A DNA stretch of 64,000 bases from an uncultured Gammaproteobacteria bacterium (GTDB lineage: Bacteria; Pseudomonadota; Gammaproteobacteria; CAWCPV01). The translations under genes were made by a program, and so were the position numbers. This document shows, one piece after another, positions 10,820 to 43,489 of this stretch; positions within the stretch are counted from its first letter, which is position 1; each line of letters opens with the position of its first letter. The stretch lies in contig CAWCPV010000004.1 of NCBI GenBank assembly GCA_963797555.1, forward strand, positions 576,001-640,000, given 5' to 3'. Under the pieces are notes generated by a model. It saw only the letters and a list, made by a program, of their open reading frames with translations. It was not told where the DNA came from and made no database searches.

Positions 10820-11722
10820 TTGCTGCTACGACGACTTCTACCTTCTTTGGCCGACGAAGCCTCGCGAGTCCGACCGCTTCAGCCGGTGACCGGAGAACGC
10901 CCGAGCGCGGTGTTCTTCCTCACCGTCGCCTACTTCTTCGTCGAACTCATCGGCGGTCTTCATTACCACAGCTTGGCCCTGGTCACGGACGCCGCCTTCA
11001 TGGCAATCAACGTGACGGGTCAGTTGATCGCGCTCGCTGCGTTGCGTCTCAGCGAGAAGCCGGCGGACGCAAGGCACACGTTCGGGCACGAGCGCGTCAA
11101 GGTGCTGTCGGGTCTGTTCAACGGTATCCTGGTGGGATTCGTGGTGTTCTATGTGTTCGCGGACGCGTACCAAAAGATCCGACAGCTGCAGCCGATCGCC
11201 GCCGACAAGGTGCTGTTCATCGCCGTGTTGGGCTTGGCGGTCAACGGCTTCGGGCTCACCGCACTGCGGCCCGCATGCGAAGGACATCAACGTGCGCGGG
11301 GCGTTCCTGCTCATCCTCAACGATGCCTTGGGATCGGTGGGCGTGATCACCTCCTCGGTGGTCATCCGCTATACGGGGCTGTATGTGGTGGATGCCCTCA
11401 CCGGCGTCCTTATCAGCCTACTGGTGGCCTATCCCACCTACTTCCTGGTGCGCGACACGTTGCATATCCTGATGGAGGGGAATCCCTCCGGTACCACCGT
11501 GGACAGCGTGGAAAGCTACATCCGGAGCCGGTTCCCGCACATCCACCAAGTGAAAGACCTGCGCATCTGGGCATCACGCCCGACAAGGTTCTGCTCGCGG
11601 TGCGTGTCCGGACCGACGGAGAGGTGGCCAGCCGCGCCAGGGTCAGGGCGATGAAGGAGCATCTCAAACAACAGTTCGGGCTCTATGACGTCTATGTAGA
11701 GGCATACGAAGACGAAGCGTGA
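10820..11722 (+). CDS. Cation diffusion facilitator (CzcD/ZitB-like) transporter, about 2 frameshifts
   Basis: HSLALVTDAAFM, KPADARHTFGHER, DINVRGAFLLILNDALGSVGVI, HILMEGNP, VKDLRIW. Segments alternate between frames; start uncertain. Confidence 0.85.
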   Translation: MLLRRLLPSLADEASRVRPLQPVTGERPSAVFFLTVAYFFVELIGGLHYHSLALVTDAAFMAINVTGQLIALAALRLSEKPADARHTFGHERVKVLSGLFNGILVGFVVFYVFADAYQKIRQLQPIAADKVLFIAVLGLAVNGFGLTALRPACEGHQRARGVPAHPQRCLGIGGRDHLLGGHPLYGAVCGGCPHRRPYQPTGGLSHLLPGARHVAYPDGGESLRYHRGQRGKLHPEPVPAHPPSERPAHLGITPDKVLLAVRVRTDGEVASRARVRAMKEHLKQQFGLYDVYVEAYEDEA

Positions 11723-13660: not shown

Positions 13661-15776
13661 TGTCGGTACCCTCTTTCGCGGGCAAGACGAAAGAGAATGT
13701 GGCTCCGCCGCTCGGGTTCGGCGCTGGCGAAAGCTGCCCCTCGTGGGCCTCGATGATCGAACGGCTGATGGACAGTCCCATGCCCATGCCGCTCGACTTC
13801 GTGGTAAAGAAGGGTTGAAACAGATGCTGCTGGACCTCGGGTGCCAGACCTGGACCGGTGTCGGCCACGGCCACCTCGATAAATCCGCCTTCCCCGACCG
13901 CAGTGCGCAAGGTGATCTGGCGGCGAGGACCCTGCATGGCCTCGATGGCATTGCGCACGAGGTTCACCATGACTTGCTCGATCTGAATCGCATCCGCCAT
14001 GACCGGTGGCAGTGAGCTATCCAGGACTATGTCGACGCTTACTAGATGATGCCTGGCAGGGGTTGATTGAGCTCGTGCGCGATGTCGCTGGCCATCTGTC
14101 CCATGAGGCTGAGGCGGGCGACGTGGGCTAGGGCGGCGCGGTGCTGCCTCGACACCTCTTCGGCGCGAACGCGCTGTGTCACATCGAGCGCGATTCCCAC
14201 CACACTGGCCGCCAGCTCACCGGCCTCGCCGAGCTTGACCTTAACGATATCCAGCTCGTGCATGTCGCCGTCCGCAAAGGTCAACCCCCGTCGGGCGTGA
14301 CAGGGGACGTTCTCGTGCAAACAGTCCGTGCCCGAATCTCGCCAAGAGGCGAAGCTGTTGTCGTACCGCCCAGGCTGCCCCGCAGATTCCACCAGCCAGG
14401 ACTCCGGTAGCCCCAGCCAATCACACAAGGTGGCATTGGCAAACCGGAGGTTGCCTTGCGGTCCCACCATCCAGATGCCGATAGGAGCGTTGTCCAAGAC
14501 CGCGCGCAGTGTGGTTCGTTCGCGCAACAGCTCCCTCTCGATGTGCTCGCGTCGGGACACCTCTTCCTCGAGGCGCGCCTTGGCCGCAGTCAACCCCGCC
14601 GTCCGCTCCTTCACGCGCAGCTCCAGCTCGTCGCGCGCCTTGCGCAGGGTGTCCTCCGCGCGCTTACGCTCGACCGCGGCCCCCAGCACGTGGGCGACGG
14701 ACTGCATGAAGTTCACGTCGTCCGTGCTGAACGATCGCCGTTCTGCGCTATGAGCACCGAGCACCCCAAAAGGCCGGTCGGGGCCGCGGATGGCGACGCT
14801 GACTCCGCTCACGATCCCGTGGTCATGGAGCAGGGCTGGACCGTGGAAACGCGTCTCTGCGCTCAGATCCTCCACAACGACGGCATCGTCCGACATGAGT
14901 GTGAAGCCTGCCTGAGACTCCCGGCCGGCAATGACCGTCGCCTGCTCGACATATCCCTCCTTCCAGCCCGTTCCGGCGCGCAGCAGCAGGTTCTCGCCGT
15001 CCGGCAGGAGCTCCAGCACCTTGGCGTAGGGTGTTTGAAGCCCTTCGGCCACCGCCTCCACGGCGGCCGAAAACAGCGTGTCCAGCCTCATTCCAGTGAG
15101 TGCGATCTGCCCGAGGCGGGCCACGGCCGCTTGCTGCCGGGCGCGGGCCGCCAAGGTCTCTGCTGCCCTCTTGCTCTCCGTCATGTCCGCCACGATGGCG
15201 AAGACGCCCTGGACCATGTCGCCTTTGGTGCGGTGCGGCACGCAGTTGGCGTGTATATAGCGTCTGACGCCGTCGGGGTAAGGCGCCCAGCACTCGAAGG
15301 TTACCTCCTCTCCGGCCAGGGCCGCTTGCAGGTGACCGCCGACGGCTGCGTAGCCTTCCTCGCCCAAGGTTTCCCTCACCCGCCTCCCGTAGAGGTCATC
15401 GAGTGGACGCTGAAACCGAGATCTCGTACTGCCGGTTGTTGAAACGGTAGCGCTCTTGGGCGTCGATGTAGCTGATGAGGACAGGCAGGGAGTCCGTCGC
15501 CAGGCGCAGCATCTCCTCCGCCTCTCGCCGCTCCGTCACGTCCATGAGAGCGCTGTGGACCACCGCGGCGTTGCGCCGACGGTCCCATGCGGAAAGGCTT
15601 TCCACCCGCACCCTGAGCGGCTTGGCTGGCAGCCCTCCGATGTTGACCTCCACGACGTGTTGACCGCCCGTGCCGCAGGTCTCCTTCAGGTGTCTGGCAA
15701 AATCAGGTTGGTCCTCTTTGGCGAGAAACCGGGAGAACGTGCCCCCTCGCAGCAGGGAGGGGTCGGTTCCGAGCAT
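13647..15776 (-). pseudogene. PAS/GAF sensor histidine kinase (FixL-like), 5'-truncated, frameshifted, with an internal deletion after the H-box
   Basis: PAS segments, GAF, then H-box AHELNQPL followed by TAG at 14042. Resumes in another frame at VDIVLDSSLPPVMADAIQIEQVMVNLVRNA...DTGPG...FFTTKSSGMGMGL. Extra frameshift near 15400. Confidence 0.8.
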
Positions 15777-24475: not shown

Positions 24476-24720
24476 CGGGTTGACGGTCGCCAGCCTGGCG
24501 GTCGGTTCATCCTCTCTTGATCGATGGCCCCTCGGCGGTGGCGCGAAGAGCGCTGACTGCAAGTGGTACGTTTTGGCGGAAGCGGCACGGGCCACGAGCG
24601 GGCCATTGGCGGTGGTGCAGGACTGCTTACTGCTTTCAGTCGTTTGGGGCGCTCCTGGCTTCTGAGCAGGGAAGGCTTGGGGGGGTCGCTCTGTTACCCT
24701 GCCACCACCCGAGGAACTGA

Positions 24721-24752
24721 GAGCTTGCGAAAAAACTGTTGCGCGTCCTGAT
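24721..24752 (+). repeat. Lone left end of the MITE-like repeat near the downstream edge of the helicase operon
   Basis: TGA-GAGCTTGCGAAAAAACTGTTGCGCGTCCTGAT versus TGA-GAGCTTGCGAATAGATCTGCTGCGCGTCCCGAT at 43260. Confidence 0.7.
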
Positions 24753-24962: not shown

Positions 24963-27900
24963 TCAGGGCCGGGTCTGATAGCGGAAGAGCGTGGTCTCTG
25001 CCCTCTCGTCCATCAAGCGGTCGATCCCTCCGCTCAGATCGTACCGGTGGATCGTCTCGAGCCCCCTCTGATCAATGATTTTCAAGTCTATCGAGCGATC
25101 GTGGAAACTCCGGCTCCTGGCAAACGCATGTACGTGGACCATTATCGGCTCGCTGGAAGGAAATGCGCTTTTCAGCAGACCCGAGAGTTCCTGCTGGACT
25201 TTGTAGGCCGGCTGGTAGCGATCGTCAGTCTTCTTAAGCTCGCGGCAATGCACGGTCAGTTTCTTTACCGCGGCCGCGCGCTGGGAAATGATACGCAGCA
25301 GGTCGACGAGAGCCTTGCGCTGGAATCCCTCGACGCCGCAATAGGGGTCCCGGATGACGATCTCTTCGACGTGCGCTCCTTGCGTGGGCGCAAAGTAGGC
25401 GGAGAAATTACGCGCCGCGCCAGCCTTGACTTCCCAGCGTTCGATCGGGACGGTGTCCAGGAAGTGGTCAGCCGGATAGTGGCTCGCGACTGCTTCGAGG
25501 TGCTTCAGCCGTTCCGCAATTACTGCGTCCAGGCTGGTCTGGTAGACAGGCTCCGGTAACAAGCTGTCGAGGACAGAGACGAGCGGCTGGGCGCTGATCC
25601 AAGCCCGCGCTCCCTCCTCTGTCCCCGCCCATATCCGGGGGACTTGCGGAAGGTCGGCCTCGCCCAACCCAATAATGTGTGCGATCTGCAGGCGCCCATC
25701 TTTGAGGTAGGGATAAAGATATCGAAGCGTCTGCCTCAGACGGGCCGACGACTGAATCATTCCGACCTCGAGAGGCTCTGTCAGCAGTATCGATGCCCGC
25801 CCGCCCTTGTTAAGCCAGTCCAGCAGCCATTGGCGAGGGCCCTCTTGCTCGCTCGTCCGGGTATCGAGAGCCGGTGCCAGCAGATGCAACTCCCGGCACC
25901 CCACCACCCGCTCCGTGAGCCCCGCGAGGCTTGGTTGCAACCAGCGTGCAGCGCCCCGCTCGACGTATGGATCGCGCTCTAAACTAGCGAGCAGCTCCCC
26001 GAGCCAGGTCACTACCGGACGGCGGTCGAAATAGTCCCAGGCTTGCTGGTTCGAGTAGTCGTAGAGGCAGGCACTGCACGCGCTGGCACAGCTCCGCGGG
26101 CAGTCGAGGCGGGCCGCCGCGCGTCGCAGCAAATCCTCGATCGCCGCATCCTCGTGTATCCGCACGCAGTACCCGGCCCCGCCTGCAACCGCGTCGTACA
26201 GTATCGCCTCGATCATCTGGCCTCGGCGGCGGTACGTGGCTCGCAGCTCGTTGGAATGGATGCCAAGCACTTCCGCTGCCGCGAAGCGCAGAGCCTCGCT
26301 AAGTGTCCGCGCAAAGGACTCGTCGAAACGCTGTAGGTTGCCGACTCCCTCGGGGGCCGGAGGCAACGGCGCAAGGAACCGGAGAAGCAGCACGTCGGTC
26401 TCGAATTCGTGGGCCATGTCCTGCGGAAAGGACAGGCGTTGATTCCGGCAGGTCTCACCGGTAAGAGGGTCTTTGTGCGATCGGTCGAGTGCCCTCATCT
26501 GCTTTGCGGCGTCGGCATAGTTGCAGAGGCTGCAAATGTGATAACCGACCCCGCGAGGCCCGCGGTTCACTATGAACAGTCGTCCCGGCTGGTCCTCCGG
26601 ATCGGCAGGCTGCGCCCTCAACAGGGCAATCCTGGCTAACCCAGGCACCGAATCAAGGAACTGCTCCGGGCGTGGAATCGTAATCAGCCTCGCCTCGTCC
26701 GCCTGCCGCTCGCGGCGTCGGTGGCTTCCCGGGTCCTGTCCGTAGCGCTCGTCGTAGCCGGTGACGAAGCCGAGCGGTTTGAGGAATGGGCGCGGTATAC
26801 GCCGCTCCCTGCTTCCGCAGTTGGTGCACTCTACGGCAACGTCGGATTTCTCGATTCCCACGTCTACATGGTGGCAGCTAGGGCAGGCGGCGTACCACTC
26901 CGTCGGCATAAACATCTTGGGGTAGCGGGCCAAGCCAGCGCTCCGCCATATCCTGCCGTTGGCGACGACCTCGGCACCGGGGGCATACTCGCTGATACCC
27001 ATGGTCGCGTCACGCGTCAGCGCGATGTCGCTGTTCTGCCCGAACCTGCTCGCCTGCCCGTAGTCACGAATGACCTCGAGCGAAAGACTGTGTACAGGAA
27101 AGCTGTACGTCGGGATCAGGCTCCGCTGAGAGAGTTGGTTTACCAGGAACTGGTCGAGGTAACGCTCGCGCAAATGTATCCAATGCGCCAGGCGCCCGGC
27201 GGCCCTCCTATCGGTTCCGGCCAACTGATACGCTTCATCGACCCTCGTGGTATAAAGCTGCCACCGCTCATGCACTTCCTGCGCGAATCGGAGCATCTGC
27301 TCGCGGAAGTGGGCGGCGAGCGCATACCCTCGAAGCGCGACGTTTGGTGCCAAGGATTCCGGCAGAAACCGAGCCAGGCGCTCGGCTTCCCCGAGGGCCG
27401 CCTTGCCGCCGGTTCCGTCGAGCCAAGCGTCCAGGTCGTCCCGCCATTTGTCGAACTCTGCGGAGCCGAACGAAACCCCAAAAAGATCCGCGAGGGTGGG
27501 GGCGTTTCGGGTGAAGTCCCTGATCCGATGGCGCAGGAACCAAGAGAGCACGATCCCGTTCTGATGCCGTTGAAACAGGCGCGGGCTATCGAGCAGCACG
27601 AATGGAACCGGAGCACGCTCCCCCAAGTACTCCCGAAAGCGTCGGAATCCCGCCTGATCATACTGGCTCGTCCGAGCGATCGTCACGCAGAAGGGTGCCG
27701 CCTGCCCGCGGCGTCCCGCCCGTCCGGTACGCTGTTGGTAGTTGGCGATCCCGGGCGGCAGGTTGAGGTTAACCACGGCATCCAGGTCGCCCAGGTCCAC
27801 GCCCAGCTCCATCGTCGTCGTGCAGCTCAGGACATTGACCCTCCCCTCGGCGAACTCCCGCTCAATCTCCTCCCGAAGCTCGGTGGAGAGCGAGGCCGTG

Positions 27901-30863
27901 TGCTCGCGAGCTCGCGGGGTCAAGCCCGGGCTATTGACGTAGGTGTAGAGGTAGTGGTTGACCTCTCGCATTCGGGCCCGTTCCACGGCATCCAATGGGG
28001 TTGCGGAGCCTCGGCACCCGAACGCGCTGCACTTCCCGCTCACAGCGTCCATCTGCAATAATCCACAGGCGTCGCAAACGAGGAGTCCCACCGAGTCAGC
28101 GTTCGCGAACCGCAGAAGTCGGGCGTCGAGCCCGAATCCCGGCTGAACGGGGACGAGGAGATTACCCTTCAGCAAACCTTCCCACACGATCCCAAGAAAA
28201 TCTCGCGTGGCAGTCCAGCTCCAGCCAAGCTGCCCTACGAGGTACCGGGTCCGACGGTTGTGGCGGCGCCCCCCTTCTGGCGGCAGCCAGGCGAAACGCA
28301 CTTTCGGGTTGGTCCTGTAGAGCTCGAACGAGCGGTGCCCGGCGTATATGGGTCCCCAGATGAACGGATCTTTCATCGGGACATCGTAGAGTTCTCCGAT
28401 CGCGCGCTCCCGCCGGATCGTTTCCAGCAGGAAGCGTAGCAGCCGGTCGAGTTCCGGCTGTTCCGTCTCGGGCACCTGGCTCCTTACGGCATCTCGAAGC
28501 CTTCTAAACTTGTTCGCCTGATAGTCGACTCGCACGAGTCCCAGCGACTCCAACGAGTTGCGGCGCCCCCCTGGAGTGCAGAATTCGGCGGCAATGCGCC
28601 CCAAGAGCAGGTCTCGCATCCTCTGCATGGTGCTGATCACCCGGCCCTCCCGGTCCAACATCACGGGGAGGCCACGCCTATTCCAGAACTGGAATACCTT
28701 GTCGGCGAGGATCTCCAGGTCCATGGGCTCGTCATCCCCGCACAGGACTGCGTAAATCGCCCGCCGCAGGGCAAGGTCCCCTGCGGTGACCTGAAAGTAG
28801 GGGGCGAAGAAAGCAGCGTCCTGGCGGTTGTCCGAGAAGGTCAGCAGGCTGCGTCCGCCCATCGGTAGCTGCTCGTCCTCCTGCGGGGCCTGTGGCAACG
28901 ACTCCAGCACCTTCTGCACCACCACGGTGGCCAGGGCCTCGTTGCCTGGATGCATGCGCGTCACGACCTCGGCGTCGGCTGCCGCCGCTGTCCCACCGCA
29001 GGCTGGGCAGCGCCGAACGTAGATGGCGTTTTCTTCGTCGTCCTTCTGCATCGCCACCTCATACAGGGTGACAGCTTCCGGACCCTGAACCAAGAGTCGA
29101 CCCGTCTTGGGGTCCAGCGCGGTTGTTGTGGCCGTGGCCGAGTCTTGCTCAGCCCCACCTTCTTCGTCTTCGTCGTCCGACTCGTCGCGAGTGCGACTCG
29201 CCGGGGGGACACCGAGCCAGAAGACACGGCGAACGGCTCTTCCTTCCTCAACCAGAGGCCTGCGGTTATACAGCGTGGTGGCGTACTCGAAGCCCTCGAT
29301 ATACGGCTGACCACACTTGCGGCAGACGAGGAGCGGGTAGTAAAGCCCTGACTCGTCCTCCCCCTGGCGTAGGGCTTGGGCGGCCGCCCAGCCCTCCGGC
29401 GAACCGTCGGGACGCACCGCGACTCCCTCGATGCTATTGGTGGCGATGTGGTATCGCGCCGGCAGCAGCGGAAACTCATCAGGATGGGCCCGGGCCAACG
29501 TGCCGACCAGGACTACGGCGCTGAGCGCGGCCCCGAGGTCCCTCTCCGGCGCGCCGGGGCGACCTTCAAAGGTGCGCTCCGCGACCCACTGGAAATCCAT
29601 GACGCCCCCCTCGTCCAGGATGGACGAGACCCTTCGCACCTCCCGGTTTGCCGCGAACAACGCCTCCAAGGCTACCCCGAGCGAAGAGCCACGTGCCAAC
29701 GGGGGTAACCTTCCTTGCAACTCCGCGCGGCGTGTGACCTTGTCCCATGTGTCCCGGTCGAGTTGACCGTCGGCGACCTCTTTTAGCTCACGACCCAAGT
29801 TTACCCAGCCGTCGACGCTCAAGCTCCACAGATCGTCGCGTGCCTCCCGCAAGCGCACGTGCGGAACCCGTCTGCCCCGTATTACCTGCCCGATGGGCTC
29901 CCCGAAGAGGTCAGAGGCGAAGCGACAAATCCGCGCGTCCGCCCCCTCGTACTCCGGCAGGCTCGCGCTGGTGCCGAAGACCTGCAGCGGCTGACCGAGA
30001 TCGAGTCGGTTCTTGAGTTTGCGCAACAGGAACGCCACCTCGGTGGCCTGCGCCCCGCTGTATGTGTGAATCTCGTCGAGTACCACGACCAGTAAGGTAC
30101 GATGCACGAAGAGGGGCGCGTTGCGGGGGAGGAGCAGAAGGTGCTCCAACATGGCGTAGTTGGTGATGAGGATCTTCGGGGGCTGCTGCAGCATCTCCTC
30201 GCGAGTGAGCAGCCAGTTCGAGGGGATGTCCCTAACGCCCAACGCCTTCATCAACTTCGGGTTTTTCCGCAGCCGCTGCTCCTCCTCACCCCGCGCTGCG
30301 TTGGCACGTATCTGAGAGGTGAAACGCCCGAGGGTGATGCCGGCCGCACGCAGGTAGACCCCGAATAGAGGGGCGATGCGGTAATAGAGCTGGTCGTTGG
30401 CGAGGGCATTCATCGGGTAGACGATAAGGCAACGCACGCCCGGCGTATCTGGGCGCAAGTCCTCCAGCAGGCGATGGGCGATGGGGTAGAGGAACGTCTC
30501 GGTTTTGCCGCTGCCCGTGCCGGTTGCAACCAGCAGGTTTTCGCGATCCCGGCAGGCGAGGGTCAGCGCCGTCTCCTGATGGAGGTGCAGTCGCCGTGCC
30601 TGGAGGTGCTCCGGTAGCGCCAAGAGACCATCGTGCAGAAATCCCCCGTTTGTCCTCAACAGAGCATCAAGCGATCTGCCTTTCTCAAAGTCTGGCAGCC
30701 CCTCCACGAAGGGGCCGCGCAGAAGTTCCTGCTCCGCCAACAGCCGCCGAAACTCCTGCCGAAGCTTTGGATAACGGCGGCTGATGGGCAGCGCCGTCGG
30801 GATATAGCGGCGCAAAGTGTCGGAGAGGGTCTCGACCAATCGGAGGGGGTTGGTCTCTGTCAT
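24963..30863 (-). CDS. Large SF2 DEAD/DEAH helicase with DUF1998 and a C-terminal PLD-like domain (DruE-like), 1966 aa
   Basis: Q motif LHLHQE, Walker [50 protein letters not shown] and motif [16 protein letters not shown]1998-type [11 protein letters not shown]...[13 protein letters not shown]. Several CxxC pairs. C-terminal IRDPYC...FHDRSI. Confidence 0.92.
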
Positions 30864-30878
30864 CCTGCTCTTCTCCGT

Positions 30879-33800
30879 CTAATTCTCCGACGCGAAAGCG
30901 AGCTCCCACAGCAGAAGGTAGTAGCCGAGGACCTCTTCTCCGAGGTGCAGAAGGTAGGCCACTACGCTGTGAAGATCATCTTCACTGAATCCCGCGGCTC
31001 GGCGAAGAGCGGCTTGGAACTGGTCCAGGGTACCCGCCGCTCGGACCTCCCAGCGACAGACCTGGGCCATCAACGAAAGGAAGCTTACCATCGCATGTAG
31101 ATTCTCCTGCTGCTGAAGTTCCTCGTCCGTCAGCAGGCTGGGACCGGCATCCGCGAGCAATCCGAGGGTAGCGTGCTGCCCACAAAGGTGGGCTGGATAG
31201 CCCTCCCCGAAGTCGTCCAGGGCGCAGTGATTGAGCCGATTTAGCAGATACAGGCTGCGCGTGCGCCTCAGCTCGTTGCCCTCAAGGCTATTCTGGTAAC
31301 GCTCCCGCAGGTGTGCGAGGGCGAAATGGTAATGTAGCGCCCCCAGGTAGTCCCCCCTCCCTGGTTGCCAGTCCTCCTGGCGTAACAGACGCCACCGACC
31401 CGAGAGATCCGACACCTTCAGCGCGTCGTGGAGGGCCTGTACACGAAATCCCTGCGGTTTTTCACCTCTCGCCATGCCGGCGAGGTTTGAGAAAGCGCCC
31501 GCGAAAATGCTGTCGAGTATGCCGTCCGTGAACAGACGAAGGAGGTCTCCACTGAACGCCGGAAGCAGGCCAAGGCTGCGGGTGAGTCCACTTTGACCAC
31601 TTGTGGGCCGGGTTGGGGCGTCGGCGAGCACGCTGTAGGACGATGAGCTTTGGGCCAGCAGCCAGGGCAGGGCCACCGGGATCGACAGGAGCGGCACCCA
31701 GCTCAAAGACGCGGTCTCAGGCGGGTGTTGCCCGCTGAGACGCCCAAGCTCCTGAAGCACCGACCCTCCTTGAGGGCCGAACCGGCCGACGAGCCGTCTC
31801 CAGAAGTCCCCGACCCACCCCATCTGTGACCAGGCCTCCTGCGCGTGGCAGACGAGGACGAAGGAGTGCACGCGGGTGAGGACCTCCAATGCCTGGTCGT
31901 CGTTGAGCCCGTCAAGCCAGGCATCGGCCTCCATTCGGCTTCCTGAGCGACCTCCAGCACCCAGCAGGAACCCCGCCGAGTACGTGTCACCCCTAGCGTT
32001 CGTGAGTGTTCCCCAGCGCCCGCTAATACGGGCATCGAGGCTGACCATCCAGATGCCGGGTGCCCAGCGGTCGAGGGGAACGACGAGGGTGTAAGCCACG
32101 CCGTCTGGCTCCGGAGCGGAGAAGGTCCAGGCCTTCGCGGATGGGTCTTGCAGCACGGAGATATCATCGCAGCCGAGATCCACGCGGATATCCTGCCCGC
32201 CAATCAACTCAATGGCGGCCAGTCGAATCCGGTCGGCGCTGGCTGCCAACCTGAAAACAAGATCAAAGCGCTCGGGCTTCTGGACGGCGTTGAAGCGCAG
32301 CACTTGGTGCGGCACTATGAGCTGAACGAGGGGAACACCGTAGTCGACTCCCTCCGGCCGGAACATCAGGGTGCTCGAATCGGGACGCACGTGCTCGACG
32401 AGCGAGGCGAGATGCAGACGCCGCGAGCCCACCTGCTCGAACTTCACCCATTGCCTGAAACCGCCCAGCTCCAGCGCGCCGTCGGAACTCGAGTAGACCT
32501 TGAGGACCTGCCGAGTCGCCGGCGTGACCGAGAGCGCGACCCCTTTGTGGAGGGGACGCTCGACCACCGGCTGCTGTGAATAGTCCTCCAGGTAGAGGAA
32601 GATCCCCGGCACAGCCCATGTGAGCGTGAGGGTGCCCTGGTGACCCAGATTGAAGCCAGTGCGGAAGAAGCGGTTTGCGTTATCCCGGTATGTGAGCGTC
32701 CGGGTCTGGCGGTCGACATGTAGGTTCTCGCTCGCCTCATCACTCAAGTTCTGCGGAAAGCCACTACAACGGAACCAGCAACGCTCGCGAACCTCCTCCA
32801 GCCCATTCCACACGTGAACTGCGGCCCGTGCCAGGGGCCGGCGCAGGTCCTGGCGCCGGACCTCGGCGAGCAACCGAGTGACCCCCGGCCTCCAGCGTGC
32901 GAGGTGTTCCGAAAGGTCTATCCTGGAATGGCTCTGTATATGGTCGAGGGGTAAGACGGCCTCGTCCCCAAGGTCCCCGGGAATCAGGCGTACTTCGAAG
33001 TTGGCTGCTGCCTGGAGGAGTTCCACTGGCACGACCACGCGCAGCGCGAGTTCGGGGGACAAATAGACCTCATGGCCGCGGACACCTCTGACGGCGCGCC
33101 CTTCAATGGCGACGAATGGCCGCGCGTCGGCCTGCAGCGTGGCAGTCGCTGGCCCGCGCCGGAGAACCAACGTCGCGCCCGGGTCGAATTCGGCCTCATA
33201 GGTGAAGAGTTCAGGTGTGTCGGACACGCGCTCGATCAGTTCCTCCAGGCCATCAGGAACGAACCGGAGAACAAGCAGGTGGGCCCCCGGCTCCACAGCC
33301 ACGGTATCCGGGGCGCCAAGCGCTGCACCGGTGACGAATGCTCCTGACCGGGTGAAGATCAACAGCCGGTTCGGCCTTCCGTCCTCCCATAGCCGCTCGG
33401 ACAAGATGTCCTGTCCTTCACTGGTCTGTATGGACACGTCGGAGGGAAGATTTTCCTCGAGGTGCACAAAACGCCCTTCTGCGAAGCCCTGGTACCGATA
33501 CTCTGTAGCCCCGACCCGAATCACCCAGTTCGTGCCCTCCGCGGGCGGCAGGTCGACCCCGAGCGAACCGTCTCGCCACACCACGTGCGGTAGGCTGAGG
33601 CGCTTTTGGCCCTCGCCCGACGGCCGGGTCTGCGGAGTCGTCAGAACCTCGGCGAGAAGCCTACCGAAGGCCGAGTTGTGTACCTCCTGGGAGTCGGGTT
33701 CTTGATACGCCCTGCAGAACAAGCGGACATAGAACCCGGTATCGTCCGCTTCGATCGCCCTGGTAGCCCGTTTGGAAGGAAAGTGCCTGAGCTGCTCTAG

Positions 33801-34355
33801 CAGCCCGCGTTGCCATAGCCGAATGGCATTCGGGTCGTCGTCGTCCGGGACACCAGCGACACGAGCATATTCCGCCATGCGCCCCGCGAGTTCGCCGGCG
33901 TAGCGCAGAGGCACCCCGGCCTGGCGGAGGTACTCGTCCACCATGAAATTCGTACCAGAACGGCGTAATGAGACGGAGAGCCCCAGCCGCACGCAAGCCT
34001 GCCGGTACGCCACACAGAGCCTTTCTTTCTGTGACTGCGAAAGCGTCCGGGTACCACCTGTAACGGCGCGCTCCACATACTCGTATACCTCTGGCGTCGG
34101 GCTCTGACCATAGCCCTCGACCACGTGGACGGTGAGGTAGGTGGCGAAAACCGCAGGCCAACGGGAGAGTCCATAAACATATCCACTAAGCGCGTCACGC
34201 TGCGACGCGAGCAGCTTCGCAAGAAATCCTCTGGCATTTTCGCGGAAGACGTCCGTGTAGAGACCAAGAAACGGCATGGCTCCATCTTTCAAAGCGCCCA
34301 CGATGCGCGCCTCCATCCGCTCGAACCAGATCTTCGTTGCGTCCGTTAGTGCCAT
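30879..34355 (-). CDS. Large hypothetical protein (1158 aa), co-transcribed helicase partner (DruH-like by size and position)
   Basis: Uninterrupted 3.5-kb ORF. 15-bp gap with a GGAG RBS before the helicase ATG. No catalytic motif recognised; helical N-terminus and beta-rich middle. Confidence 0.85.
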   Translation of the reverse strand: MALTDATKIWFERMEARIVGALKDGAMPFLGLYTDVFRENARGFLAKLLASQRDALSGYVYGLSRWPAVFATYLTVHVVEGYGQSPTPEVYEYVERAVTGGTRTLSQSQKERLCVAYRQACVRLGLSVSLRRSGTNFMVDEYLRQAGVPLRYAGELAGRMAEYARVAGVPDDDDPNAIRLWQRGLLEQLRHFPSKRATRAIEADDTGFYVRLFCRAYQEPDSQEVHNSAFGRLLAEVLTTPQTRPSGEGQKRLSLPHVVWRDGSLGVDLPPAEGTNWVIRVGATEYRYQGFAEGRFVHLEENLPSDVSIQTSEGQDILSERLWEDGRPNRLLIFTRSGAFVTGAALGAPDTVAVEPGAHLLVLRFVPDGLEELIERVSDTPELFTYEAEFDPGATLVLRRGPATATLQADARPFVAIEGRAVRGVRGHEVYLSPELALRVVVPVELLQAAANFEVRLIPGDLGDEAVLPLDHIQSHSRIDLSEHLARWRPGVTRLLAEVRRQDLRRPLARAAVHVWNGLEEVRERCWFRCSGFPQNLSDEASENLHVDRQTRTLTYRDNANRFFRTGFNLGHQGTLTLTWAVPGIFLYLEDYSQQPVVERPLHKGVALSVTPATRQVLKVYSSSDGALELGGFRQWVKFEQVGSRRLHLASLVEHVRPDSSTLMFRPEGVDYGVPLVQLIVPHQVLRFNAVQKPERFDLVFRLAASADRIRLAAIELIGGQDIRVDLGCDDISVLQDPSAKAWTFSAPEPDGVAYTLVVPLDRWAPGIWMVSLDARISGRWGTLTNARGDTYSAGFLLGAGGRSGSRMEADAWLDGLNDDQALEVLTRVHSFVLVCHAQEAWSQMGWVGDFWRRLVGRFGPQGGSVLQELGRLSGQHPPETASLSWVPLLSIPVALPWLLAQSSSSYSVLADAPTRPTSGQSGLTRSLGLLPAFSGDLLRLFTDGILDSIFAGAFSNLAGMARGEKPQGFRVQALHDALKVSDLSGRWRLLRQEDWQPGRGDYLGALHYHFALAHLRERYQNSLEGNELRRTRSLYLLNRLNHCALDDFGEGYPAHLCGQHATLGLLADAGPSLLTDEELQQQENLHAMVSFLSLMAQVCRWEVRAAGTLDQFQAALRRAAGFSEDDLHSVVAYLLHLGEEVLGYYLLLWELAFASEN

Positions 34356-34429
34356 GGCAAGCTGTCAGAGCGCCGGCCTGTCGTCGCGACCGTCTGTTCC
34401 GCCGATAGCGCTGGGAATGGTCATGGGCT

Positions 34430-34630
34430 CACGAGGTCTTGCAGCAACACATCATGGTTCGTCTCCTTCTCGTGCTCCCTCACCAGTCGGCTGAGCGTGG
34501 ACGAGTGCCGCCGAAGCGCTGTGCAATGGCCTTCATCGAGCGCCCCGGCTCATGAGAAGTTATCCAACTATTCCCGGGTAACCTGCGCACTGCCCACGAC
34601 TGCTGGCGAGGCGGGCGCGGCCCCGGGACA
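34430..34630 (-). pseudogene. Possible C-terminal HTH remnant of a REP-associated tyrosine transposase (RAYT)
   Basis: PPRQQ...GRSMKAIAQRFG / HSSTLSRLVRE across a frameshift, followed by TGCAAGACCT. Recognition is from memory of the family. Confidence 0.4.
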
Positions 34631-35155
34631 ACCCGCCGTACCGGCGGGTAATTGTACTCCCTGAAATTCTGTCGCCGGTCAGCGACGAGACCCCGTCTCC
34701 GGTTCACTCGATAAGGCATTCGGGCAGTGCCCAGCGAGCTGCGGGCCAAACAGGGACCGCTGCTCGCAGCCCTTCGCACTTGGTGGCTGGTCGAGCGATG
34801 AGCGAAGAGCTTTCTTTGCCGACCGACAACACGGCGCCCTGCAAGCCGTGGTAACGGCGGTTTCGTGGGACACGGCCGCTGCGCTGCGCTGACCCTGGGG
34901 AGAATGCTGCGCCACGAGTTCGACCGGCCGAGATGACCTCTCCGGACGACGGCTCTCGATTGCTCCCGCCGACGCGTTCTCCGAGGTCGGCGTCCCTACG
35001 GGGGCGAGCGCCTGGAAGCCGCTCCTGCGTCACGTTCCCGGCACACCCTGCTGAGGCATGCTAATTGCGTACTGCTTGGCAACGATTGTCCGCTATCTGG
35101 TTACAGCCAGGTGGCCAACGGCTCGTGCGGAGGGGGCTCCCTCCGGGAGGACGTT

Positions 35156-38743: not shown

Positions 38744-39448
38744 CTACGGTCGTTTCCGTTGGACGACATCGTCCCGCAAGTAAACAGGCAATGCCTCCTC
38801 GGCGCTGACCGCCTTACCCCGGTGGAAGGCGTCGGCGGCCAGAGCGGCAATCGCGCTTGCCCGTGGATGGTAACCCGGCAGCCAGCGCTCCACGGCGGAG
38901 GAGACGCGGCTCAGCAGCACGGCGCCGTGGCGTTCCCACCCGCTTCCCGCTCCGACCCATCCGTCGTCGGGTGGCAGCGGGACCCGGTCTGGAGAACAGG
39001 CCAGCTCCGGTCCTGCCGGCTCAACCAGCCCGGACAGGACGCGCTGGTATGCGCACCAGTAAACCTCACCCATGCGGGCGTCGAGGGCGGCCAGGACTCG
39101 CCGTGCGGGGACCGCATGGGCCAGCGCGGCCAGAGACGAAATCGGCACGACCGGCCTATCGGTGCCCAAGGCGAGCCCTTGGACCACGCTGGCAGCGATC
39201 CGCACGCCGGTGAATGAACCGGGTCCACGGCCGAAGGCGAAGGCATCCAGTGTGCGGAGCGCGAGCCCGGCCTCACCTAGCAGCTCGTCGACCATGAGCA
39301 GGATGCGGTCGGCATGCTGCCGAGGCGCCAGAACAAACCGCTCGCGAACCTCGCCATCCAGGTAAAGAGCCACGGAGCAAGCGTCCGTGGCGGTGTCCAC
39401 CGCCAACAGCCGGATACCGCTGGGCCCCGGCGCGGCCATGGTGGTCAT
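38744..39448 (-). CDS. tsaB: tRNA t6A biosynthesis protein TsaB
   Basis: LLAVDTATDACSVAL, GRGPGSFTGVRI, LDARMGEVYW, PVYLRD. Confidence 0.96.
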   Translation of the reverse strand: MTTMAAPGPSGIRLLAVDTATDACSVALYLDGEVRERFVLAPRQHADRILLMVDELLGEAGLALRTLDAFAFGRGPGSFTGVRIAASVVQGLALGTDRPVVPISSLAALAHAVPARRVLAALDARMGEVYWCAYQRVLSGLVEPAGPELACSPDRVPLPPDDGWVGAGSGWERHGAVLLSRVSSAVERWLPGYHPRASAIAALAADAFHRGKAVSAEEALPVYLRDDVVQRKRP

Positions 39449-41349
39449 CCGCGGACGGCCGGAGCGAAGAATGCCTCCACGTCAGCCAGGTCGCGCGTCA
39501 GCCGCATGGGCGGCAAGGACGCCAGAAACACTCGCCCGTAGGCGCGTGTGACCACACGTGGGTCGCAGAGCATGATAACGCCGCGGTCGGTGATGTCGCG
39601 GATCAATCGGCCTGCGCCCTGTTTCAGCGCCAACACCGCTTCCGGCAGCTGATACTCTGTGAACGGGTCGCGGCCCTGCTCCCGCATGCGCTCCAGGCAG
39701 GCTTTTAGGACGGGGTCGTCGGGGGGAGAGAAAGGCAGGCGATCGATGAGCACCAGCGAGAGCGCGTCACCCCGCACGTCCACCCCTTCCCAGAAACTGG
39801 CAGTGCCCAGCAAGACCGCATTACCCAGCGCACGGAACCGCTTCAGGAGGATAGCGCGCGGGGCTTGCCCTTGCACGAGCACGGGATAGGACAGGCGTCC
39901 GTGCAGGCGGCGGGCCATCGCTTGCATGGCGCGGCGGCTGGTGAACAGCAGGAAGGCACGGCCCCGGCTGTGGACGAGGGCGGCCAATGCGGCCTCGGCG
40001 ACGGCGTCGCCGTAGTCCGGGCTGTTAGGCTCCGGGAGTCCTTCTGGGACATACAGCAACGCCTGGTGCGCGAAGTCGAAGGGGCTGTCCCAGCGGCGTG
40101 TGACCGGTCCTTCCAGGCCCAGGGACCCGGTGAAATGGGAGAAGTCTTCGCCCACGGCGAGGGTAGCGGAGGTGAACACCCACGCGCAGTGATAAGTCTC
40201 CAGGCGGTCGCTGAATAGCTTTCCGATGTCGAGCGGCGTTACCCGCAACGTGAAGCCTTGCTCACGCGTTTCCACCCACCGAGTGCGCTCGGGCTCCGCG
40301 CAAGCGCAGAACAGCTGCACGTGCCTCGTTAGCTCGTCACTGCGCCTGGCACAGCTCTCCAGCCCCCGCGACCGATCGGCCAAGGGTTTGAGCCGGTCGC
40401 GCAGCTCTTGCAGCATTCCCATCAGCGTTTTCATGTGGTGCGCGACCGCGAATCTTCCGGCGGCCGCGGACCACGATAGGTGCGCGGGCGGTCCCAGTAC
40501 CGTGCGCAAGGCGGAGCTTGCTTGAACCACCTGCTCCGCCGTGGTGCGGACATGCGCAAGGTCGTCTATCGCCTCCGAGGCACTATCCCTGGCGAGATCC
40601 AAGAGCTGGCCGTAGCTCACCCCCACCCCGAGAAAGTCCCGGGCCACCTCCGGTAGCTGATGGGCCTCATCGACGATGACGGCGTCGGCGTTCGGGAGCA
40701 GCTCGCCGACGCCGCGATCACGCAGGGTCAGATCCGCACACAGCAAATGGTGATTGACGACGACCACGTCCGCCTTCTGTGCTGCACGACGGGCGCGGAC
40801 CAGAAAACAGTCCCCGTAATAGGCGCACTCCTGCCCCAAACAGCTGTCGGCCGTGGAGCTGAGTGTGCGCCAGATGTCCGCATGGTCGGGGATCTCCGGA
40901 ATCTCCGCGAGGTCGCCGGTCTCCGTGCTCCGCAGCCAGCGGGTGATAACCCCTCGAAGGTCTGCGGGCAGCATCGGCGAAGCACGCCGCGGACGTTCCA
41001 GTCGGTACAGGCACAGGTAGTTGGAGCGACCCTTGAGCAGGGCCGTCGTTAGCGAGGCGTCCAATGCCTCGCGCACCAGCGGCAGGTCCCGCGAGAACAA
41101 CTGCTCCTGAAGGGTTCGCGTACCGGTGGAAACAATGACCTTGAGGCGAGATAGCACGGCGGGAACCAGGTAGGCGAACGTCTTACCGGTGCCAGTCCCG
41201 GCCTCGGCGACCAGGACTCCCCGTGACCGGAGGGTCTCGGCTACGGTGTCGGCCATCTCCCGCTGGGCCTGTCGAGGCGTGAAGCCGGAGACGCGACGAA
41301 CCACCGGGCCGCCACGGCTTAGTAGATCGCCCGCGCTCTTCGATCTCAT
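39445..41349 (-). CDS. yoaA: DinG-family Fe-S ATP-dependent DNA helicase YoaA
   Basis: EAGTGTGKT, LKGRSNYLC, CLGQEC...CF, VDEAH, FWEGVDVRG, LKQGAGRLIR. Translationally coupled to tsaB. Confidence 0.92.
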   Translation of the reverse strand: MRSKSAGDLLSRGGPVVRRVSGFTPRQAQREMADTVAETLRSRGVLVAEAGTGTGKTFAYLVPAVLSRLKVIVSTGTRTLQEQLFSRDLPLVREALDASLTTALLKGRSNYLCLYRLERPRRASPMLPADLRGVITRWLRSTETGDLAEIPEIPDHADIWRTLSSTADSCLGQECAYYGDCFLVRARRAAQKADVVVVNHHLLCADLTLRDRGVGELLPNADAVIVDEAHQLPEVARDFLGVGVSYGQLLDLARDSASEAIDDLAHVRTTAEQVVQASSALRTVLGPPAHLSWSAAAGRFAVAHHMKTLMGMLQELRDRLKPLADRSRGLESCARRSDELTRHVQLFCACAEPERTRWVETREQGFTLRVTPLDIGKLFSDRLETYHCAWVFTSATLAVGEDFSHFTGSLGLEGPVTRRWDSPFDFAHQALLYVPEGLPEPNSPDYGDAVAEAALAALVHSRGRAFLLFTSRRAMQAMARRLHGRLSYPVLVQGQAPRAILLKRFRALGNAVLLGTASFWEGVDVRGDALSLVLIDRLPFSPPDDPVLKACLERMREQGRDPFTEYQLPEAVLALKQGAGRLIRDITDRGVIMLCDPRVVTRAYGRVFLASLPPMRLTRDLADVEAFFAPAVRG

Positions 41350-41515
41350 TGCAGCGGACGCGCGGCGGTGCGGCGTCGGCTCCCTTCGCAAGCGGGCCTT
41401 ATCGTGGTGGCTGGTCGGGCGAGTGCCGAGGGTAGCCGGTTGGGCTATCCGGGAAGGTCTGCTTGCCATGCCACCGTAAGGGGCGCCAAGCCCAGGCGCC
41501 CCGCCGGCCGATGGC

Positions 41516-43165: not shown

Positions 43166-43262
43166 GGGGCGGCTTCAGTCTGTGCCGTGGGGGCGTGCCC
43201 GACGGTGCTGGGCGCACGTGATCGGCGAAACGTCGTCTTGGGACACGGCTGCAGCGGTCTGA

Positions 43263-43489
43263 GAGCTTGCGAATAGATCTGCTGCGCGTCCCGATAGCGG
43301 CGTCGTGCGGTGTTGATGGCGTACCTCCCTGTCCGCCACCCCTTTGGGGCGTCCCACAGCCGCGCCGAATGGCCATTTCGTCATTCGGTCGCTCCTCGCC
43401 TAGTCTGCTGGATGGGCCGCGTCGCCGCGCTTCCTGTGCGTCGCTCCTGGCGCTCCTGGGCTGCTCGGTAACGATTTCCTCGCTAGCCC
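43263..43489 (+). mobile_element. Full-length MITE-like element flanked by TGA direct repeats
   Basis: Left end GAGCTTGCGAATAGATC; right end (reverse complement) GGGCTAGCGAGGAAATC; TGA at 43260-43262 and 43490-43492. Confidence 0.75.

Follow-up and report, generated by a model that had tools for sequence, protein, structure and literature searches.

A candidate two-gene anti-phage operon, probably of a deep, unmodelled Druantia type III lineage, in an uncultured gammaproteobacterium

In a 64,000-nt stretch of DNA from an uncultured gammaproteobacterium (contig CAWCPV010000004.1, positions 576,001–640,000; hereafter the window, whose own numbering is used throughout) we found two very large genes, P0001 and P0002, that probably make up an intact anti-phage operon belonging to a deep and unmodelled Druantia type III lineage and composed of a divergent DruH and a DruE helicase bearing a PLD-like nuclease module. 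Reading from the sequence, we place the pair outside the modelled subfamily III-A and regard it as unlike the compact III-B, whilst its mode of action is probably, by analogy, that of III-A. The pair is not a new kind of immunity.

The gene pair and its helicase

The two genes, the junction between them and the domains and motifs recognized in their products are as follows.

30879–34355, minus strand: druH-like partner gene P0001, 1158 aa, first gene of the operon (open reading frame (ORF) list and translation)
33789–34298, minus strand: N-terminal domain of the partner, residues 20–189, which aligns with the DruH/YjiT N-terminal domain (hhalign)
30864–30878, minus strand: intergenic spacer of 15 nt, ACGGAGAAGAGCAGG, with the GGAG-type ribosome-binding site GGAGAAGAG (read in the sequence)
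24963–30863, minus strand: druE-family helicase-nuclease gene P0002, 1966 aa (ORF list, PADLOC, Pfam and PDB match)
30501–30527, minus strand: Walker A/helicase motif I, ATGTGSGKT, residues 113–121 (read in the translation; invariant in 39 of 39 clade members)
30066–30077, minus strand: helicase motif II, DEIH, residues 263–266 (read in the translation; D263, E264 and H266 invariant)
27705–27911, minus strand: Helicase_C (RecA2) core, residues 985–1053 (Pfam PF00271, 2e-15)
26064–26303, minus strand: MZB/DUF1998 zinc-binding domain, residues 1521–1600 (Pfam PF09369, 3.7e-10; cysteines invariant in the clade)
24990–25451, minus strand: C-terminal PLD-like nuclease module, residues 1805–1958, with RDPYC, HCRE and FHDR motifs, FHDR at 25095–25103 (ZorD1 and DruE3 profile matches)

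Both genes are co-oriented, start with ATG and contain no internal stops in translation; the ORF list, the translations and the junction sequence all agree with the original prediction of two large co-oriented ORFs 15 bp apart, with a ribosome-binding site between them and no frameshift over 9.4 kb. At the junction the TAG stop of P0001, the upstream gene, is followed by the 15-nt spacer and the ATG of P0002, and the two make up a tightly spaced operon led by the smaller gene. As each has many full-length homologues, they are real genes rather than chance ORFs in GC-rich DNA. Their GC content at third codon positions (GC3) is 0.73–0.77, comparable to that of the adjoining genes, and their overall GC content of 0.626–0.648 is slightly under that of most of the window.

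For P0002, three Pfam domains score above their cut-offs, namely DEAD (residues 95–303), Helicase_C (985–1053) and MZB/DUF1998 (1521–1600), and ∼680 residues of inserted domains lie between RecA1 and RecA2, a layout described for the ARMADA/Druantia branch of YprA helicases by Bell et al. (PMC12458937). The best PADLOC model was DruE3 (PDLC00037; 8.4e-163, 542 bits, extending to profile position 1998 of 2055), followed by DruE1 (PDLC00013; 6.3e-160, 533 bits), and the DruE3, DruE1, DruE2 and DruE4 models all matched, with E-values from 8e-163 to 1.5e-93. Models for DrmA, DpdJ and BrxHII matched weakly, far under the DruE scores, and repair-type helicase models, including TIGR03817, scored far under their cut-offs. 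The nearest solved relative was the DruE-like chain PDB 9tu7_Y, a 2108-aa DEAD/DEAH helicase (8e-76). On these matches P0002 is a genuine DruE-family helicase, which agrees with the general definition of Druantia and, by both PADLOC and Pfam, with the type III-like helicase first proposed. Additionally, precomputed Pfam annotation gives PF27116, which may be a recently defined DruE-specific domain, for P0002 and for all 120 relatives listed, although a scan with the local copy of Pfam did not return this domain.

As controls we used DruE genes from two genomes, each the next gene downstream of a canonical DruH gene. On PDLC00037 these scored 2362 and 2318 bits over one full-length stretch, compared with two stretches for P0002, whilst on the DruE1 model they scored 576 and 566 bits. 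Judged by such scores, the distance between P0002 and the type III helicases that have been modelled equals that between the latter and type I, and P0002 lacks the full-length, high-scoring DruE3 match that marks subfamily III-A. In BLAST comparisons it reached 341 and 294 bits with two canonical III-A DruE proteins, against at least 1000 bits inside its own superclade.

The last 160 residues of P0002 match the C-terminal nuclease region of the ZorD1 model (4.3e-11). When P0002 was aligned with nine clade members and two canonical DruE proteins, D..Y and H.R were common to all, the canonical proteins having DRY and H.R where P0002 has RDPYC and FHDR. These positions look like Asp1917/Tyr1919 and His1999/Arg2001, the residues reported for the PLD pocket of PaDruE (10.64898/2026.05.13.724313), a correspondence that we infer. 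In a 39-sequence alignment, Walker A, DEIH, motif VI and the zinc cysteines were invariant in all 39 clade members, as were residues D1839, P1840, C1842, E1875, H1921, D1922 and R1923 of the module; FHDR was furthermore found in 11 of 11 superclade helicases tested. P0002 retains every clade-invariant residue. By this measure its ATPase and PLD-like catalytic motifs are intact, and a C-terminal PLD-like module with conserved active-site residues, a feature of type III-A, is present.

Surveying the neighbourhoods of homologues, a check that the original prediction had proposed, we found that the pair is kept. In 12 of 13 genome loci a helicase homologue lies directly downstream of the partner, on the same strand and after a gap of about 5–30 nt; the one exception is locus L007. 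Across these loci the identity of the partner to P0001 (31–50 %) and of the helicase to P0002 (48–72 %) rise and fall together, with the partner family diverging faster than the helicase, as has been reported for DruH relative to DruE (10.64898/2026.05.12.724681). Metagenomes were scanned with a distant, eight-sequence partner subgroup, the members of which are 22–27 % identical to P0001, and here the helicase was directly downstream of the partner at 25 of 30 loci; the other five comprised two (one sequence present twice) that keep just a 33-residue remnant, one that was rearranged and two that were too short to judge. With open frames of 1990–2118 aa, the helicases paired with these distant partners align from end to end with P0002 at 38–40 % identity. 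A word-indexed search returned at least 120 helicase clusters (90 % identity level), with 47–65 % identity and lengths of 1744–1992 aa among those listed. The partner and helicase families are strictly paired, and the arrangement typical of type III, a two-gene operon with the partner upstream of druE that is inherited as a module, is what we observed. The partner family was present in none of 60 same-class relatives and in two of 400 further genomes drawn from the phylum, of which one is marginal; for comparison, one canonical DruH model matched seven of 300 genomes. The family is rare and patchy in distribution.

The partner protein and its remote likeness to DruH

P0001 is one of a family of proteins some 1100–1180 aa long, recovered as 41 clusters by the word-indexed search and, in a profile search of 1.84 billion representatives, as 466 clusters (50 % identity) at E ≤ 1e-3, of which 215 reached E ≤ 1e-30. 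Canonical DruH is the YjiT/STY4851-ECs_5259 family, for which the models used were PF27201 and PF27205 (YjiT_N/YjiT_2nd), NCBIfam NF038336 and 13 PADLOC DruH3 models, with the canonical DruH P0043 as positive control.

P0001 is probably a very divergent homologue of this family, as suggested by three kinds of comparison. Firstly, hhalign of a 73-sequence partner-family profile with a 38-sequence DruH profile placed N-terminus on N-terminus (18–186 versus 16–182; E 6.2e-5, probability 64.8 %, 155 columns), with the family-invariant QAGVP of the partner on the invariant GGLP of DruH. EYLRQAGVP and PDDDDP are among the invariant motifs of the partner. A second, collinear match linked partner residues 565–853 to DruH 615–907 (E 0.0015), whilst five controls, one reversed and four block-shuffled, gave best E-values of 0.07–0.25. 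Secondly, a DruH hidden Markov model (HMM) scored 18.1 and 13.4 bits on the N-terminal regions of two partner-family members, compared with at most 3.1 bits on reversed sequences. Thirdly, when the ESM Atlas was queried with the family member P0021 (37 % identical to P0001), 23 of the 30 best feature neighbours carried YjiT_N/YjiT_2nd; the highest score was 0.93, and 206 of 256 features were shared. Among the Atlas neighbours of the partner family is an actinobacterial cluster of which the YjiT models recognize only 19–23 % of the members. The fold of type III DruH consists of an N-terminal helical domain, six Ig-like domains and, at the C-terminus, a helical domain, and cryo-EM models of DruH are listed in a preprint under the accession codes 28XY, 28YA and 28YB. 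An internal-repeat self-comparison for Ig-like domains was blank for the partner family and for true DruH alike, and so uninformative.

Two members of the partner family, P0157 (1464 aa) and P0188 (617 aa), have extra N-terminal stretches ahead of a P0001-like body, and these score 13–18 bits on the N-terminal region of the DruH HMM. They could be duplications or fusions that bridge the partner and DruH families, or assembly artefacts.

A number of results weigh against assigning the pair to Druantia type III with a divergent DruH. PADLOC produced no match to P0001 at E ≤ 10, its 13 DruH3 models included, and its DruH models matched none of 39 close relatives (E ≤ 1) and none of 31 distant members, whereas 12 models matched the control P0043. 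Similarly, the NCBIfam model YjiT_fam (NF038336) recognized none of seven partner-family members at E ≤ 1, with controls scoring 1116 and 621 bits, and the partner-family profile had no match among PDB sequences. The hhalign probability is just 65 %, and a narrower, 39-sequence profile gave 2 % and E 0.023; without the N-terminal domain, YjiT clusters still headed the Atlas neighbours, but with a score of 0.83 that is a lead only. For the helicase, the 542 bits of P0002 on DruE3 contrast with 2318–2362 bits for the controls, and P0002 resembles the type III model no more than it does that of type I. At the locus itself, the pair is flanked in the window by no credible defence gene, as judged by PADLOC on P0001 and 21 neighbouring ORFs, and by no integrase or tRNA. 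Finally, the III-A mechanism is itself unsettled, since published accounts have DruH as a nuclease-free binder of single-stranded DNA or as a 3′–5′ exonuclease, and the PLD domains as dispensable (10.64898/2026.05.13.724758) or essential (10.64898/2026.05.13.724313).

Further searches of the partner were also blank. A narrow partner profile found nothing by hhalign against one DruH sequence, precomputed Pfam domains were absent from all 41 partner-family rows (DruH carries PF27201 and PF27205), and cluster look-up of 10 distant family members yielded only the name 'hypothetical protein'. A local Pfam scan of P0001 and its family was likewise blank; because the control DruH also had no match, the YjiT models not being in this copy, these blanks are meaningless for YjiT domains. 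The reservation voiced at the outset that the partner might not be a true DruH was well placed in that every DruH model fails, though remote collinear similarity exists; neither a strong full-length DruH match nor one to type III DruE, which would have made the system a known one, was found.

One could alternatively propose a new Druantia type, in which a DruE-family helicase works with an unrelated, analogous partner that has replaced DruH and that would bring a separate trigger and perhaps a separate biochemical activity. An exchange of partner of just this sort is what sets Druantia types apart, as for type IV (PMC8565338), and this proposal accommodates both the failure of all DruH models and the position of P0002, which is equally far from the DruE3 and DruE1 models and shares only ∼290–340 BLAST bits with III-A DruE. 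It does not, however, account for two collinear profile–profile matches to DruH well above controls, nor for language-model neighbours that are nearly all YjiT/DruH clusters; moreover, the length of the partner, the gene order and its faster evolution are as in DruH. As such, we consider a replacement of DruH unlikely, and a divergent DruH the preferred reading.

Comparison with known systems and proposed mode of action

Druantia type III-A (E. coli ATCC 8739, P. aeruginosa), which consists of DruH/YjiT and a DruE with two PLD-like domains, has the same two-gene order with the partner first, a partner of similar size (∼1100–1160 aa) that evolves faster than the helicase, and a DruE in which RecA1, a large insertion, RecA2 and OB/MZB are followed by a C-terminal PLD-like module keeping H-x-R and D-x-Y. 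In contrast to III-A, P0002 is ∼100–140 aa shorter and has D-P-Y in place of the 'DRY' triad, in addition to the low BLAST scores and the failure of the DruH, YjiT_fam and Pfam YjiT models described above. Type III-B, or 'type III-like' (e.g. M. smegmatis MSMEG_1253/1254), is likewise a pair of a DruH-like protein and DruE, on a branch apart from III-A. Its typical DruE is reported as compact and without PLD, with 1667 aa in M. smegmatis (PMC13316683; 10.64898/2026.05.13.724758), whereas P0002 has 1966 aa and a PLD-like module, and the helicases seen in its lineage are ∼1940–2030 aa and carry the FHDR module; by description, therefore, P0002 differs from the compact (∼1650 aa), usually nuclease-free DruE of III-B. 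Bell et al. (PMC12458937) allow for helicases of the 'type III-like' branch that carry PLD domains on occasion, and P0002 may thus belong to that branch despite its size.

Druantia types I, II and IV share a DruE-family core helicase with our pair, and P0002 scores nearly alike on DruE1 (533 bits) and DruE3 (542 bits). Their partners, DruA–D, DruM/F/G and DruL, were not found at the P0001–P0002 locus: for DruABCD, DruMFG and DruF plus DruL, PADLOC gave no match in P0001 or the 21 neighbouring ORFs, just unrelated weak or generic matches. Furthermore, the C-terminus of P0002 is a conserved PLD-like domain and not the inactivated Vsr described for the nuclease of types I and II (Bell et al., PMC12458937). 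DISARM, Dpd and ARMADA also possess a YprA-like superfamily 2 helicase with DUF1998/MZB; unlike in those systems, no methyltransferase, BrxHII/DrmD-type helicase, DrmB/C or 7-deazaguanine genes adjoin the pair.

Druantia III was dissected mechanistically in papers of 2025–2026. Our literature searches on Druantia, DruH/DruE and YjiT returned no paper describing a lineage with a model-undetectable DruH; the tree of Bell et al. may already include the P0002 clade, as clade members, which include proteins of Geothermobacter, Methyloprofundus and Desulforapulum, stand in NCBI nr. The reported census of Druantia III was built on PADLOC matches to both DruE and DruH (10.64898/2026.05.12.724681), and a census of this kind would miss the lineage because no DruH model detects the partner; at best it would surface as an orphan DruE that fails the DruH half of the definition. 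Profiles for the lineage would thus widen the known range of Druantia. They would also provide a natural comparison set of the same architecture with a sensor identity of ∼20 % or lower, which could help to settle which features of DruH are essential (the N-terminal motif, the ssDNA (single-stranded DNA) pocket, the DruE-binding C-terminal domain) and how relevant the PLD module is.

More tentatively, we raise the possibility, which we would not yet call probable, of a type-level, 'III-C'-like lineage in which a DruE of ∼1960–2030 aa carries a PLD-like nuclease with FHDR, and the sensor, at ∼1100–1180 aa, lies beyond the reach of every present DruH model. Such a lineage would be common in environmental Gammaproteobacteria, Betaproteobacteria and Desulfobacterota, invisible to PADLOC-type censuses, and probably different in trigger specificity from E. 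coli III-A.

III-A DruE is reported to be a 3′–5′ helicase, engaging ssDNA that adjoins duplex (10.64898/2026.05.13.724758; 10.64898/2026.05.12.722862), to be dimeric, with autoinhibition in one study, and to have a PLD nuclease activity, mutation of which puts an end to defence (10.64898/2026.05.13.724313). For DruH the published accounts diverge, one preprint presenting an ATP-inhibited ssDNA binder that is described there as having no nuclease activity, another a 3′–5′ exonuclease whose C-terminal domain brings DruE to forked DNA (10.64898/2026.05.13.724313), and a third a protein that senses late phage proteins and nicks in a dimer-dependent manner (10.64898/2026.05.12.724681). It is by analogy to these that we infer the physical and functional coupling of partner and helicase, the nature of the trigger and the anti-phage activity of the pair. 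What the partner recognizes or processes would be late proteins of the phage or DNA states specific to it (ssDNA, forked replication or recombination intermediates), after which the partner would license DruE. The helicase, in turn, would load on ssDNA beside duplex, translocate 3′–5′ in an ATP-driven manner with unwinding, and degrade the DNA via the FHDR/DPYC PLD-like site, the expected outcome being clearance of the phage and survival of the cell.

Genomic surroundings

Of the homologous loci with flanking ORFs, seven of 11 have defence neighbours by PADLOC (E ≤ 1e-8, with SbcB-like and IscS-like matches left out), as listed here by locus.

L013: type I restriction-modification system, ThsA-like protein, QatABC
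L004: methyltransferase, mad3-like ATPase, CARF-RtcR, Ppl, pAgo
L003: GajB-like/Cas4-like protein, NsnB-like ATPase
L005: BrxHII/DrmD-like helicase
L008: type IIG restriction-modification enzyme, HEC-05, PDC-S02
L002: DpdF-like helicase
L007: SoFic and HmaA-like proteins

At L007 (10001–12247) the partner homologue breaks off near residue 783 and no helicase follows, the surrounding genes being SoFic-like and HmaA/TmtA-like; the locus has the look of a degenerated version of the system within a defence island.

In the window itself the neighbours are RlmJ, two small secreted proteins, a lipoprotein, a histidine kinase with its response regulator, a CpxP-like protein, TsaB and a DinG/YoaA-type helicase, and the sole tRNA is 26 kb from the pair. 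The original prediction that the pair is unrelated to its flanking genes, with no methylase or other defence gene adjacent, holds, none of these neighbours being a credible defence gene. The gene for the DinG/YoaA-type helicase (39445–41469, minus strand) was considered as a defence neighbour and rejected, as it adjoins tsaB and has no csf genes nearby. It scores 473 bits (4e-142) on the PADLOC 'typeIV_DinG' model, which is associated with CRISPR type IV-A; the model is probably not specific and the helicase probably a housekeeping paralogue, in what is presumably the yoaA–yeaZ neighbourhood known in E. coli.

The mobile-DNA debris originally seen on both sides of the pair was recovered on one side only. 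Downstream of druE lies a MITE-like (miniature inverted-repeat transposable element) repeat near 24721 that has 18 copies in the genome, whilst upstream a remnant of a RAYT (REP-associated tyrosine transposase) gene was not demonstrated, and positions 34356–35100 (the 745 nt upstream of the operon) are unique in the genome.

24705–24752, no strand assigned: copy of a dispersed ∼40-nt repeat, REP/MITE-like (REP, repetitive extragenic palindromic), ∼210 nt downstream of the druE stop (genome copies)

This copy has 17 further copies at 82–88 % identity on several contigs of the genome. The repeat is probably an element of REP/MITE type, and the copy at 24705–24752 may mark the boundary of an inserted cassette. 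A search for direct or inverted repeats flanking the cassette found short two-copy matches only, which we judged to be due to chance.

The position of the pair as a lone cassette beside a dispersed repeat would also suit a silent or recently acquired relic that looks intact and is inactive in its host, and a simple scan upstream of 34355, a weak method for a GC-rich genome, found no promoter-like site; no sequencing run listed is registered as RNA, which tells nothing for or against it. With 9.4 kb open and free of stops and frameshifts, all clade-invariant residues kept in P0002 and a GC3 like that of neighbouring genes, we nevertheless find such a relic quite improbable. That the pair is instead a housekeeping DNA-repair or fork-processing helicase-nuclease of the MrfA/YprA kind with an accessory protein and no immune role, as the housekeeping neighbours and the descent of DruE from MrfA/YprA repair helicases (PMC12458937) might suggest, is very improbable in view of its patchy distribution (0/60 relatives, 2/400 phylum genomes), the defence islands at 7/11 homologous loci, and best matches that are to defence DruE models, with TIGR03817 and other repair-type models far under cut-off.

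Several minor features of the window were also recorded. At 34440–34560 (minus strand) two overlapping frames read as a short helix-turn-helix segment with a frameshift, which could be the remnant of a transposase or resolvase-type gene. Another copy of the dispersed repeat (37–48 nt, at least 18 copies in the genome) is located at 43259–43295. Additionally, a few ORFs look truncated, and two possible pseudogenes, in keeping with the original remark on broken neighbours, were seen: a cation-efflux ORF (11151–11654, plus strand) that spans just the C-terminal third of its Pfam profile, and a PAS/GAF sensor (14042–15776, minus strand) that is apparently split over two adjacent ORFs.

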